Shown here one piece after another: positions 33,728-37,524 of a DNA stretch of 64,000 bases. Source of the stretch: Chlamydiales bacterium (GTDB lineage: Bacteria; Chlamydiota; Chlamydiia; Chlamydiales; FEN-1388); contig JBGSSB010000073.1 of assembly GCA_041737255.1 (NCBI GenBank), positions 7,954 through 71,953 of the forward strand, written 5' to 3'. A model generated the notes under the pieces. It ran no database searches and had not been told where the DNA came from. It saw only the letters and a program-made list of their open reading frames with translations. The position numbers were made by a program, and so were the translations under genes. The stretch's first letter is position 1; each line of letters starts with the position of its first letter.

Positions 33728-34059
33728 AGGATTAATTTAAGCACTTTTTCAAAAGGTAACATAATGAAATCTTCCGTAAAGGCCGACTGAAGAAGTTAGA
33801 AGGGAATTTAAACGTTAATGAGAGGCACAAATGCGCCTCAGTCATGCACGACCCTGATATGCTAGATACCTTTGATTTTTCTGAAATTGATGACGACCAC
33901 GTCTTAATTTTGCCCGATAACGACCACAGACTGCCTGGAGGCAGGACCGTTCTTAAGGGAACTTATATTGTTTCTAATAGTTAAGCGCCTGCAACGGTTT
34001 TATGTAAAAAAGAGTATTTTGTAAAATTAAATATGAACAGACTTAAGCACGAAAAATTA

Positions 34060-35725
34060 CTACAACACATATGCTTGATTCGGCGAGTTTCCCCTTTCTG
34101 GATACACGTACTTTAAGTTTCCTGCTTTTACTAAAGGGGTAAGGTATTCTCTAACTAAGTGCTTTTTATCTTTTTTATTTAAAACTTCCGCGAGTTGCTG
34201 AGCTGTAAGAGCTTGCCAAGAACAAAGTTCGCAAATCACTCTTCTAAGAGTATCTTTTGTAGGCCGTTTACTTAGCTTGAAAAGTATTGATTTTAAATTT
34301 TCAGGGAGATTATCTCTAATATCTTTTCCTTCCAGCAAGGATGTTTCAGTCTGAGACTGGTGTGTTATTGGTAGCAACTGGTGTGTTTCGGCTTGAAGCT
34401 GGTGTGTTATTGGTAAAGGCTGGTGTGTTTCGATCCCAATTTGCAATGATTTTTCATCAATAGAGTTAATTTTACGAGATGCTTCGGGGTGGATTGGCAA
34501 AATTACTAGAAAAAACCTATGCTCTTCATCAGTTTTAAATATCGGGGAAGGAGATCCATTAACTTCCATTGCATTGTGAATTTTTGGCACTCCAGTGCAG
34601 CGCCCTTCAGTTAAATGAAGCTCTTTTAAAAAATCTCCAATACGTCTGTTTCTATATGTCCGCACCCGTACAGACCTCTTGTTTAAATCCCCGATCTTAA
34701 GGGGAGGCAGGGGGCCAGGAAACGACAAAATTTCAATACGATCCGCATGAATGCTAATTTCAATCGGCTCTCTTTGCCCATAGTCTTTATGGTAAACTGC
34801 ATTAGCTAAAGCCTCTTCCAGTGCTACGTAGGGGTAATTGTAAAAGCGGTCTGCTTCTGCACGATCCGGGCGTTTGCGAATTTCTTCCCTAATAACCATG
34901 GTCTGCAGATAGCGAAGGGCCTCTTTAAGTTGGATATGAATAGGGCCTTTAAAGATCTTTTCGGAAAAGCTATCGCCAATTTCATCATGAAATTCGACAA
35001 TTTCTATTCGAGCGCAGGGGAAAAACTGCTCCGGATTACCATTAAACATCATTAAACCAATATTTATGGGTTTAAGATACTCTTCCGGGCCTTGTGCGAT
35101 TTGCATCCGACGGCAAAGATGCTCAAAGGGAATTTTATCAACCTCAACAAGAAGGTCGCTCTTAATTTCACGAAGAAAATCCTTGATAATCCCTATATTC
35201 AAGTCACTTAATTGCGCTTGATGACAAATGCGGTCATCATATGGCACCTGATTTGCCAATTCATGGAGCCTTTGAATATCGGCTGTTTGGGCCTTATGTG
35301 TTGTTGAGTTGCGCCTTAAATAATACGCGTAAGAAGGGCTTTTTCCTAACGTTTCCGGGGCTTGATAAGGCCTTGTTTGACCGCCTGGGCACCAAATAAC
35401 AAGGATAATTTTATCTTGAAACTGGACAGGGGCTACTACGGGATGATAATTTGGCCTAATTCTGTAGCCTAGTTCAATTATTTCTTTTTTGGATTGTATC
35501 TAAGGTATTAGGCGCCAATCCTACTGGAGGAAATATTGGTTGGCCATCCGCTTCTTTTATACCAAAGATAAGGTATCCACCACCCCAATTGTTAATATCA
35601 TTGGCAAAAGCACATACTGTGCGAAGAAATGCCTCAGGATTCCAACCTTCTTTGAATTCCAAGCGTTCCCACTCTACAATCTGTCCCTGGAGTAGTTCAT
35701 TAATATTAATTGGAAGAGCACTCAT
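34060..35725 (-). pseudogene. COG2865-type protein (AlbA_2/Schlafen-like N-domain, ATPase-like core, C-terminal winged HTH) interrupted by a 1-nt frameshift in an A6 run
   Basis: The N-terminal ORF 35474-35725 ([23 protein letters not shown]...[18 protein letters not shown]) ends at a TGA. Frame +1 is open from just upstream of the T6/A6 run at 35485-35490 (...[46 protein letters not shown]...) and continues into ORF 34060-35259. Deleting one A restores a single 554-codon frame. Confidence 0.75.
34357..34440 (-). repeat. In-frame 42-bp tandem duplication inside the COG2865-type gene
   Basis: CTGGTGTGTTATTGGTAGCAACTGGTGTGTTTCGGCTTGAAG is followed by CTGGTGTGTTATTGGTAAAGGCTGGTGTGTTTCGATCCCAAT. 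On the coding strand this gives ETHQPLPITHQLQA / ETHQLLPITHQSQT, and CTGGTGTGTT occurs 4 times. Confidence 0.85.
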
Positions 35726-35755
35726 CTGGCATCCTGATAAAAGTGTTCATGGCAT

Positions 35756-36019
35756 CTAAAATGCATCGACAAGCTCCTTAACTCCGTTCTGATTAATACG
35801 GCTTTTCTTTTTGAACGCTGAGAGGAGTTTTTGCAATTTTTGAAGGGCTAGCGGTGAAGGTTTTGCCTTTTGATTTTCCCAGCGATTTACAGTTGGAAAC
35901 GAAACCCCAATTTTTGCGGCAAACTGTTCCTGGGTTAAGCCCATTTCAAGCCTAACTTCTCGAATATCATATGAAATTTTTTTATCCAAATCTATTATAC
36001 CTGTTCCTGTCAACTTCAT
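35756..36019 (-). CDS. XRE-family helix-turn-helix transcriptional regulator (87 aa)
   Basis: IREVRLEMGLTQEQFAAKIGVSFPTVNRWENQKAKPS is a canonical Cro/C1 HTH. It ends 30 bp upstream of the COG2865-type gene. Confidence 0.8.
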   Translation of the reverse strand: MKLTGTGIIDLDKKISYDIREVRLEMGLTQEQFAAKIGVSFPTVNRWENQKAKPSPLALQKLQKLLSAFKKKSRINQNGVKELVDAF

Positions 36020-36052
36020 CTTGCATTTTTGTGCTTTTCTGATATATCATTC

Positions 36053-36081
36053 GTTATAAATTATGCTATATTTGCACGCAA
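36053..36081 (-). promoter_or_regulatory. Sigma-70-like promoter for the XRE / COG2865 transcription unit
   Basis: On the minus strand: TTGCGT, a 17-nt spacer, then TATAAC, about 35 nt upstream of the XRE start. Confidence 0.4.
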
Positions 36082-36269
36082 GAAAAATTAGCCCCCTTAC
36101 TATATCTCAAATACAACAACTGTATTGCAGATGCTGTTGTGGATTTGGGAAAACCGAATGAAATTGCTAAGGTATTTACAGGATTCCAGAAATTTCTATA
36201 TCAGCCTCGAACAGCAATAAGATGCGCAAGTGCACTATAAATTGGGTAGAAGCATAGCTTAGGTTATCT

Positions 36270-37331
36270 CTAATCTCGCAAAATTGAATTACCTATGGCT
36301 TTTTCTTGATGCAGTCCTAAAATCGTAAAAGCTGCCTGATCGGCATCATTTTTAGTTAATGACCTCTTCTCAATTTTATTAAAGATATTGTCACAGCACT
36401 CCTGTAGAACCTCTTTAGAACAACCTAACTCAAAAAATACAGGTTGAGAATTTTCGCTTCCACAGCAGCACTTAATAGACAATCCATGGTCAATTTTACG
36501 ATTTAGAGTTATTATAACTGTTAAGGGCACTAGCCCCCCCTTTAGAGGAACAACAATACCTTCCCTTGCTATCGCAGAAAACGAACGCTTTATAAAAAAC
36601 TGACTTATCCAATGCTCTTGAGAAGGTGGCCTGAGACTAATAACCGCCGTTGTCGGGCTCTCCTCGATATCTGCAGTTAAAAAAGCATGTCTAGCTATTC
36701 CCTTGCCTTCATTTCTCAGCGCAATGCCCAACTCTAAATTGATTTCTCCATCTCGTTTTTGTGTAATCCCGCTGTAAAGATACGTGTGGACGATTTTCGC
36801 TTGAATTCTTCGGCCAAAAAACCCCTCAAGAATGCCATGTGGAACTGGTTCAAAGTTCGAACCCACTCTCATGTAATAGCATTTCGAGTTATTTTCCTGA
36901 TGTGGTGCACAATCACTTTTAGGAATTAGAGTCGCAATAACCCCCTTAGTAGAACCCGGGATTTCAATTATATGGTGAATTACTTCAGAATGTGGTGGTA
37001 GGGTACGCCCAGAGGTCTTTTTTTCTAACCAACTCACAAACCTTTGGGGATCTTCAATAGGCTTTTTTGCCCGCGCAACATCAGCCCCATCTCCAAGGTC
37101 GGAGCAATCTATACCCCAAACAATTACTCCTCCCGAAGAATTACCAAAGCCAGAAATTGCCTTACCGTAGTTATTTAGGTCATTTACATGTAGATTTTTC
37201 ATGTTACCGTCGTCTGCGGAACGCTTAAAATCTAAGAATAATTCTTCAGACCGTCGATCTACGATAAATTGTTCTATGGCTGTAATCCCATTAACCTGGA
37301 TGGAATGAAAAAGATCATCTGCTCTTCCCAC
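36270..37331 (-). CDS. AlbA_2/Schlafen-like domain protein with an unrecognised C-terminal domain of about 180 aa
   Basis: EELFLDFKR, AISGFGNSSGGVIVWGI and CYYMRVGSNFEPVPHGILEGFF match the order of the AlbA_2 hallmark blocks. The C-terminal half is beta-rich and Cys-rich (SIKCCCGSENS...LQECCDNI). The start is GTG with an AAGGA SD. Confidence 0.6.
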   Translation of the reverse strand: MGRADDLFHSIQVNGITAIEQFIVDRRSEELFLDFKRSADDGNMKNLHVNDLNNYGKAISGFGNSSGGVIVWGIDCSDLGDGADVARAKKPIEDPQRFVSWLEKKTSGRTLPPHSEVIHHIIEIPGSTKGVIATLIPKSDCAPHQENNSKCYYMRVGSNFEPVPHGILEGFFGRRIQAKIVHTYLYSGITQKRDGEINLELGIALRNEGKGIARHAFLTADIEESPTTAVISLRPPSQEHWISQFFIKRSFSAIAREGIVVPLKGGLVPLTVIITLNRKIDHGLSIKCCCGSENSQPVFFELGCSKEVLQECCDNIFNKIEKRSLTKNDADQAAFTILGLHQEKAIGNSILRD

Positions 37332-37449
37332 GATTTATCCTTATGCTGTAAAAATTAGGGGAGCTACCCGCCACATATCCGCCACAAGCTCATAAATACA
37401 GAAAAAGGGAGACCTGCTAGAATGATCGCAAGTAATTAAGAAAAAGATA

Positions 37450-37524
37450 TCTGAGTGGGAGGATTCGAACCTCCGACCCCTTACACCCCATGCAAGTGCG
37501 CTAGCCAAGCTGCGCTACACCCAG
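37450..37524 (-). tRNA. tRNA-Pro (anticodon GGG)
   Basis: The reverse complement folds as a 75-nt cloverleaf: acceptor CTGGGTG/CACTCAG with the C1:G72 pair typical of bacterial tRNA-Pro, anticodon stem CTTGC/GTAAG with loop ATGGGGT (G37), and T arm GGAGG-TTCGAAT-CCTCC. Confidence 0.9.

Follow-up and report, generated by a model that had tools for sequence, protein, structure and literature searches.

A 64-kb stretch of a contig from an uncultured member of the Chlamydiales, hereafter the window, carries a 3.7-kb islet of horizontally acquired, defence-type genes between uhpC and a tRNA-Pro(GGG) gene. In our assessment it is likely that this islet is what remains of the cargo end of a decayed integrative element inserted at tRNA-Pro(GGG), and that it carries two Schlafen (pSlfn) units: a 353-amino-acid (aa) Schlafen protein with a C-terminal β-sandwich (unit 1), and an XRE-family gene paired with a Schlafen (Slfn)–GHKL ATPase–winged-helix gene (unit 2), the second unit being dead in this genome. 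The islet is a new example of an already known defence type, pSlfn. An earlier note on this DNA, made from the letters alone, had called the prokaryotic AlbA_2 and COG2865 proteins essentially uncharacterised; that statement is out of date, as work from 2025–26 established bacterial Schlafens as antiphage tRNases (PMC13056530; PMC13462974; bioRxiv 10.64898/2026.05.29.728809).

The islet begins at the 3′ end of its integration target, tRNA-Pro(GGG) (37449–37525, minus strand; ARAGORN, and 53.5 bits in Rfam), and extends to the uhpC stop codon at 33727. All of its cargo open reading frames lie on the minus strand. Reading away from the tRNA, these are the intact 353-aa gene (36270–37331), an intact 87-aa XRE-family helix-turn-helix (HTH) gene (35756–36019; HTH_3, E value 1.9e-15 by Pfam) and, 30 bp downstream of the latter, a frameshifted gene of the COG2865 or 'Schlatpase'–winged-helix type (34060–35725; 554 codons when read through). 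The frameshift splits this last gene into an 83-aa fragment holding the first half of SLFN_AlbA_2 (35474–35725; 38.2 bits by Pfam) and a 399-aa fragment holding HATPase_c_4 and a Fic-like_C winged helix (34060–35259; Pfam). The earlier note had described the genes, their domains, the 30-bp spacing and the break correctly: Pfam profile searches upheld both the AlbA_2/Schlafen and the HATPase_c_4/winged-helix assignments, and three-frame translation recovered the 554 codons with a single change of frame.

The tRNA-Pro(GGG) junction and its integrative element

The accessory status of the islet is apparent from 80 uhpC-anchored chlamydial loci drawn from species-representative genomes, the window's own genome not being among them. 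None of the 80 holds any of the three islet genes. Closest to the window are uncultured Chlamydiales represented by metagenome-assembled genomes, whose UhpC proteins are 74–87% identical to that of the window. The gene order lpxD-like/trmA-like/uhpC ... tRNA-Pro(GGG)/pepF/ung/sua5 is preserved in loci L002, L003, L004 and L006. In L002, L003 and L006 the gap between uhpC and the tRNA measures just 0.9–1.1 kb and consists of unrelated DNA, encoding two small membrane proteins (L002), a 319-aa protein (L003) or a Zn-dependent alcohol dehydrogenase (L006, and likewise L001). Different cargo occupies the same junction in L004, L007 and L008, a Kelch-repeat protein and an epimerase in the case of L004. 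Aligned across relatives, the junction shows the islet to be variably present. Composition sets the islet apart from its flanks as well: among all 3.7-kb segments of the 64 kb it has the lowest GC content (0.399 versus 0.423) and the largest tetranucleotide distance (0.0205 versus 0.0128 ± 0.0018). The earlier note's view of an accessory block beginning at the tRNA 3′ end is sustained by the absence of its genes from the 80 loci, by the other cargo in syntenic relatives and by this compositional extreme.

The kind of element that inserted here can be recognised in L088, a 1.5-Mb chlamydial contig containing an intact element of about 11 kb (L088:1163–12354). From tRNA-Pro(GGG) onwards it encodes a ThsB-like TIR protein, a caspase-like peptidase, a SNF2 helicase, an XRE protein and a Slfn–GHKL protein; behind this cargo follows a backbone comprising a 73-aa gene, DUF5681, AlpA, a P4-type integrase and finally a direct repeat of about 75 nucleotides (nt), 49 nt of which come from the tRNA. 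These correspond to tRNA positions 29–77 (37449–37497 in the window), which form the att core. Copies of the 49-nt core are present in L001, L005, L007, L008, L082 and L088, and 48 nt of it remain at the contig end of L081. Related elements in L001, L007, L082 and L088 possess an integrase, and in L001 and L007 the 49-nt copy adjoins this P4-type integrase gene. Elements of this family are common in environmental Chlamydiales. A second Slfn–GHKL gene lies directly past the distal repeat of L088, from position 13120 on.

On the tRNA side, the islet retains an arm of such an element. The 117 nt that form the upstream region of the 353-aa gene (37332–37448, minus strand; blastn and MAFFT) are common to the window, L008 and L004 and missing at the unoccupied sites in L002, L003 and L006, where alignments to the window end about 10 nt beyond the tRNA. 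The spacing from the 49-nt core to the 353-aa homologue in L081 and L082 is 112 nt, compared with 117 nt in the window; in L105, XRE and Slfn genes come directly after tRNA-Pro. Within the arm we noted the motif TGTGGCGGATATGTGGCGGGTA (37365–37386, minus strand), which is made up of two copies of TGTGGCGG. This motif lies about 60–85 nt 3′ of the tRNA or core in L088, L008 and L004, is degenerate in L082, and recurs about 130–150 nt from the distal core, beside the integrase, in L001, L005 and L088, an arrangement suggestive of a candidate arm-type integrase-binding site. We rejected a native chromosomal origin of 37365–37448, as this segment is lacking at unoccupied sites and occurs in element arms.

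The uhpC side preserves a stub of the backbone. A pseudogene detected by tblastn (33764–33984, plus strand) derives from a 72–77-aa gene that follows DUF5681 in related elements and has homologues beside cargo in L088, L083/L084, L081, L091 and L007. The stub is 66.7% identical to the 72-aa protein of L008 over 54 aa (E 4e-21, tblastn), has lost 1 nt after about codon 7 (near 33786), with its start, MKSSVKA, in a different frame, and is convergent with the Slfn–GHKL gene, the same arrangement as in L088. Homology to the L008 backbone begins at about 33750, only 23 nt past the uhpC stop; beyond the equivalent point, L088, L007 and L001 carry DUF5681, AlpA, the integrase and the 49-nt tRNA repeat. 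This abrupt end indicates that a deletion took DUF5681, AlpA, the integrase and the distal repeat, with its probable junction, and hence the left boundary of the islet, at 33728–33763. The deletion also explains why the earlier note saw no mobility genes: searches of the 64-kb window found neither an integrase gene nor a second copy of the tRNA 3′ end as a distal direct repeat. Its suspicion that any mobility was ancient or the element decayed proved well founded once the islet was compared with intact L088.

Collectively, these comparisons suggest a history in which a P4-type-integrase element would have inserted at the 3′ end of tRNA-Pro(GGG) and a deletion would have removed the integrase/AlpA/DUF5681 module together with the distal att repeat, leaving the tRNA-proximal arm, two cargo units and the frameshifted backbone stub. 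The window thus holds a remnant and not a functional element. Both frameshifts of the window are situated inside the islet, and the other 60 kb are 88% coding without split genes; confinement of the lesions to 3.7 kb favours real decay over systematic homopolymer error.

Promoter and terminator scans of the islet returned nothing above chance. The string TTGCGT-17-TATAAC, read in the earlier note as the promoter of the XRE gene, is indeed present, but the islet contains 8 promoter-like sites where 9.4 are expected. In the Rfam scan the tRNA was the sole accepted match. A sub-threshold match to CRISPR-DR56 at 33776–33813 (26.8 bits against a gathering threshold of 35; E 0.028) falls inside the backbone pseudogene; as a single copy with no array, it was rejected as a CRISPR repeat and treated as chance.

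Several further observations concern the relatives. The Zn-dependent alcohol dehydrogenase gene lies on the uhpC side of the junction (L001:8548–9552, L006:11294–12274), is not in the window, and may be a native neighbour that was lost with the window deletion. The pepF homologue at L003:12579–14316 is split into two tblastn segments (residues 1–198 and 196–579), which suggests a frameshift or an assembly error in L003; the pepF gene of the window is intact. In L007:11395–13850, 39-nt and 49-nt fragments of the tRNA-Pro core flank a 533-aa and a 177-aa gene, neither of which matched any Pfam or PADLOC model; this segment represents a tandem or remnant element, and a second element downstream of it bears an integrase. 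L008:11350–20610 is another integrase-less remnant that adjoins uhpC and ends at a 49-nt tRNA core. Its genes comprise a HEC-09-like NYN fragment, DUF3987, DUF5681, the 72-aa gene, an excisionase-like HTH, a BanI-type restriction–modification (R–M) system with Vsr, and a 1197-aa PD-Lambda-4_A-like protein.

The 353-aa Schlafen–β-sandwich protein as an independent unit

The 353-aa protein matches SLFN_AlbA_2 (PF04326) over aa 29–162 (40.4 bits against a cutoff of 25.3, Pfam), and its C-terminal half is unmatched in Pfam. An AlphaFold2 model of the protein, with a predicted local distance difference test score (pLDDT) of 91.8, comprises an α/β Slfn domain (aa 1–172; 36816–37331, minus strand), a β-sandwich (aa 178–305; 36417–36800, minus strand; aa 180–304 in the model) and two C-terminal helices (aa 306–337). 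The top Foldseek matches of the model in the PDB are integrin ectodomain chains (8xei, 8xez, 9iuj and 8xen), and the search also returned the AlbA_2 N-domain structure 2kyy (probability 1.00; template modelling score 0.59 on the target) as well as cohesin and CBM sandwiches. The C-terminal domain that the earlier note could not assign is therefore an Ig-like β-sandwich. The same note had described this half as rich in cysteine, which is not a trait of the family: in an alignment of 115 sequences, C76 alone is conserved.

The alignment further revealed that E29-x4-D34-x-K36, an Ex4DxK motif, is invariant in 115/115 family members. Ex4(E/D)xK is the Schlafen nuclease motif, mutation of which inactivates RorSlfn5 of Raoultella ornithinolytica (PMC13056530). 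Judged by motif and fold, the 353-aa protein is predicted to be an intact, stand-alone Schlafen nuclease, and its activity would be that of a tRNase. At least 691 homologues, about 345 aa long and spread over many phyla, can be detected for the family. Close homologues are 76–86% identical in the N-domain and 52–57% in the β-sandwich, and in distant ones these values fall to 56% and 25%; the Ig-like β-sandwich is thus fast-evolving relative to the nuclease. A phmmer search with the β-sandwich returned only 27 matches among 1.84 billion representatives, and the domain occurs only in this architecture.

Other searches with the 353-aa protein returned nothing from NCBIfam and, from PDB sequences, only a weak match to CbCash (E 0.073). 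Plasmid tblastn matched the N-domain only, in Bacillus 'ATP-binding proteins', and the plasmid and phage searches yielded no enterobacterial homologue. The annotated phage collection contained no match, and a scan of viral contigs identified a sole locus, L087:1–6909 (IMG/VR), a contig resembling a CTXφ-type filamentous phage with Ace-like, RstB-like and RstA-type replication proteins. There, a homologue of 39% identity sits beside the replication gene as a moron. With one viral locus and no match in the phage collection, the 353-aa gene is not a typical phage gene.

In the window the three genes are adjacent and co-oriented, with XRE between two genes of Slfn fold, and the earlier note had likened them to one regulator-plus-effector immunity or addiction module, a reading in which XRE would control two cooperating Schlafen effectors. 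Their distribution elsewhere makes such a module highly improbable. The 353-aa homologue is found in none of 83 Slfn–GHKL loci, and an XRE/Slfn–GHKL neighbour in none of the six loci of close 353-aa homologues (65–69% identical). Distant 353-aa homologues stand alone in unrelated contexts, and the inspected loci (L081–L087 and L171–L174) have no shared neighbour: in L082 the integrase lies on the other side of the core from the 353-aa homologue, and in L083–L086 the homologue stands at the edge of an element with a BsuBI/PstI-type R–M system, DUF5681 and AlpA. Both Slfn domains belong to PF04326, as the earlier note had recognised, but they are only remotely similar (BLASTP E 0.015) and barely alignable, which marks them as co-resident family members rather than recent paralogues. 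The adjacency is unique to the window, as expected of cargo stacking in an island. These results demonstrate that the three islet genes constitute two independent units and not one module.

Downstream of the 353-aa homologue, L081:1394–2827 and L082:3064–3627 carry genes for a LAGLIDADG_2 endonuclease and an HTH_3–Peptidase_M78 (ImmA/IrrE-type) protein. These may be a further regulator or sensor pair carried by this element family.

We propose that the 353-aa nuclease would be kept inactive until its β-sandwich binds an invader-derived protein, upon which it would cut tRNAs, stall translation and so limit replication of the invader. Chlamydiae are not known to have phages other than tailless microviruses, so a sensor in Chlamydiales may recognise something other than the tail assembly chaperone that triggers the enterobacterial pSlfn5 member RorSlfn5. 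On this basis we entertain, tentatively, the idea that the 353-aa family is a Schlafen–β-sandwich lineage apart from enterobacterial pSlfn5 that senses a non-chaperone trigger in Chlamydiales; candidate triggers would be proteins of microviruses or of competing integrative or conjugative elements. Should such a lineage exist, tRNA-Pro-borne islands would represent an active immune layer in obligate intracellular bacteria.

The XRE and Slfn–GHKL–winged-helix genes

The second unit encodes the more widespread of the two architectures and appears to have been disabled. Reading through the frameshift, Pfam detects HATPase_c_4 (49.2 bits) and Fic-like_C (28.9 bits against a cutoff of 27), and the translation of the broken gene contains the catalytic motif E18-x4-E23-x-K25. 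The lesion is an additional A in a homopolymer, giving an A6 run (35485–35490, minus strand) and a premature stop at 35474–35476. The run reads CAAAAAAGA in the window; the 17 homologous loci have CAAAAAGA or CAAAAGGA, which encode IQKE in frame. We rejected a conserved programmed frameshift since the shift occurs in no homologue, which leaves a mutation or an assembly error. Judged from the sequence, unit 2 is inactive here through one extra A in an A5 run; provided that this A is not an assembly error, the copy in the window would be a pseudogene.

Elsewhere the protein is intact. It has more than 4,000 homologues; intact chlamydial ones are 64–88% identical and carry all three domains, with full-length proteins of 528–557 aa save for one of 635 aa. 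The linker between the GHKL and winged-helix domains contains 3.5 copies of a 21-nt tandem repeat encoding a 7-aa THQxLPI-like heptad (34342–34431, minus strand; found by Tandem Repeats Finder, and the same stretch as find_repeats family D1). Given the varying lengths of the homologues, this linker may be length-variable.

An XRE homologue of 62–77% identity lies directly upstream on the same strand in 16/18 close Slfn–GHKL loci, counting those at least 69% identical with enough upstream sequence. XRE is also upstream in two loci at 54–55% identity, but in only 1/61 more distant ones. XRE and Slfn–GHKL–winged helix therefore form a conserved chlamydial two-gene cassette, in which an XRE repressor probably controls transcription of the Slfn–GHKL–winged-helix gene. 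Among PADLOC models, XRE matches capH, R–M control proteins and HTH_VI, and the middle region of the broken gene matches pAgo and Aga-PNTD.

A small HTH gene that lies 0–35 nt upstream of a nuclease gene, conserved throughout a chlamydial clade and carried on a mobile element, is also the layout of a type II toxin–antitoxin-like addiction pair, which would serve to stabilise the element and not to counter viruses. Loss of a toxin by frameshift while its antitoxin persists is a common decay pattern, and here the putative toxin is frameshifted while XRE survives. XRE even has sub-threshold matches to antitoxin models, but these score far under the cutoffs (MqsA 36.8 versus 61.8, Y4mF/HipB 36.0 versus 71.65, HigA 15.4 versus 47.7), and it equally matches the defence regulators named above. 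Pairing is not obligate: the 1/61 frequency in distant loci implies that the nuclease generally needs no antitoxin, and the 554-aa protein contains regulatory domains of its own, the ATPase and the winged helix. We therefore judge an addiction pair unlikely and continue to read unit 2 as a regulated pSlfn cassette.

Defence context and known systems

Recognised defence genes predominate in the cargo of this hotspot and of sister elements. Related elements encode BsuBI/PstI-type R–M and BanI-type R–M with Vsr, a ThsB-like TIR protein, a caspase-like peptidase, a DrmD-like SNF2 helicase, AbiJ, an AAA_15/21 ATPase, a PD-Lambda-4_A-like protein and a HEC-09-like NYN protein. By this association, the defence role suggested for the islet in the earlier note is plausible, although the single three-gene cassette to which that role was ascribed is not retained.

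The source annotations, which read 'AlbA family DNA-binding', 'transcriptional regulator' and 'RecG-related', would instead make these genes DNA-binding regulators or housekeeping nucleic-acid enzymes that hitch-hike on an island without any immune role. The winged helix of unit 2 is compatible with this, some distant 353-aa homologues lie among ordinary genes, and 30% of pSlfn genes lie away from known defence genes (PMC13056530). Yet the nuclease motif is strictly conserved across the 353-aa family, the genes occur sporadically, on islands, and are missing from close relatives, their neighbours in related elements are recognised defence genes, and proteins of the same architecture have tested antiphage activity. 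We accordingly regard a housekeeping role as quite improbable, and these genes, now labelled 'ATP-binding protein', 'AlbA DNA-binding' or 'RecG', should be given new annotations.

Several considerations weigh against our view of the islet as a decayed element with two pSlfn defence units, among them the 30% of pSlfn genes just mentioned. The case for an element origin depends on comparison with relatives assembled from metagenomes, as the window has neither integrase nor att repeat, and the A6 frameshift may yet prove to be an assembly error. The HisKinase-type pSlfn fusions tested in E. coli gave no protection against a phage panel (PMC13056530), so that defence by this subtype is putative. 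No PADLOC (2023) model matches the 353-aa protein, and the host is presumably an obligate intracellular bacterium. Finally, the catalytic E15/D20 of RorSlfn5 lie 14 positions nearer the N terminus than E29/D34 of the 353-aa protein, and the 353-aa family may accordingly belong to a different clade.

Schlafen tRNases connect human and bacterial antiviral immunity, and the few bacterial Schlafens tested so far all come from free-living bacteria. With its many homologues, the Slfn–Ig-like family offers a natural series of divergent sensors for trigger discovery, and the clade-specific XRE–Schlatpase operon could reveal how the commonest, still unproven Schlafen architecture is regulated.

Among known systems, the closest counterpart of the 353-aa protein is pSlfn5, compared here by its published description. 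Both have an N-terminal Slfn domain with the Ex4(E/D)xK motif and a C-terminal Ig-like β-sandwich with a predicted fold resembling integrin ectodomains; both combine a conserved nuclease with a fast-diverging C-terminal domain; and both are single-gene systems of about 350 aa that reside on islands. The tested pSlfn5 member, RorSlfn5 (Perez Taboada et al., Nat Microbiol 2026), detects a phage protein and cuts tRNA. Its sensor is an Ig-like β-sandwich like those of integrin ectodomains, domain swaps showed that this β-sandwich sets phage specificity, and its known trigger is a T5-type tail assembly chaperone (PMC13056530). The host of RorSlfn5 is an enterobacterium and that of the 353-aa protein an uncultured member of the Chlamydiales, and because sensors are only about 25% identical even within the 353-aa family, the T5-type chaperone cannot be assumed as its trigger.

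The Schlafen nuclease core is likewise shared with Cash (CRISPR-associated Schlafen; PMC13462974; PDB 9ylu) and human SLFN11. Their effector output is tRNA cleavage, which is the output predicted for the 353-aa protein. The sensors differ: Cash uses Csx15 and cA4, SLFN11 a superfamily 1 helicase and single-stranded DNA, and the 353-aa protein, which has no CRISPR context here, a β-sandwich as its putative sensor.

Unit 2 has the Slfn–GHKL supradomain of the 'Schlatpase' (PF04326 plus PF13749), which accounts for 58.6% of prokaryotic Schlafen proteins (bioRxiv 10.64898/2026.05.29.728809), with the addition of a C-terminal winged helix as in HisKinase-HTH fusions; among pSlfn classes, HisKinase and HisKinase-HTH fusions are the most frequent (PMC13056530). 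In the SLFN-pAgo protein RzAgo, ATP binding drives tetramerisation and thereby assembles the nuclease (bioRxiv 10.64898/2026.05.29.728809). Unlike RzAgo, unit 2 has no Argonaute core, is paired with a clade-specific XRE and is frameshifted in the window.

The chlamydial elements themselves resemble P4-like satellites and tRNA islands (PMC13586616). They differ from P4-like satellites in a backbone with DUF5681 and the 73-aa gene and without recognisable primase or capsid-hijacking genes, and the copy in the window differs further in the loss of its integrase module. In common with them, they have a P4-type tyrosine integrase with an Arm-DNA-binding domain, AlpA, integration at a tRNA 3′ end with a direct repeat, and variable, defence-packed cargo; as in other tRNA-integrating islands, tandem and decayed copies accumulate at one site (PMC13586616). 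The loci compared here are evidence that environmental Chlamydiales exchange defence cargo through one such hotspot, tRNA-Pro(GGG), where intact, tandem and decayed copies can be compared.

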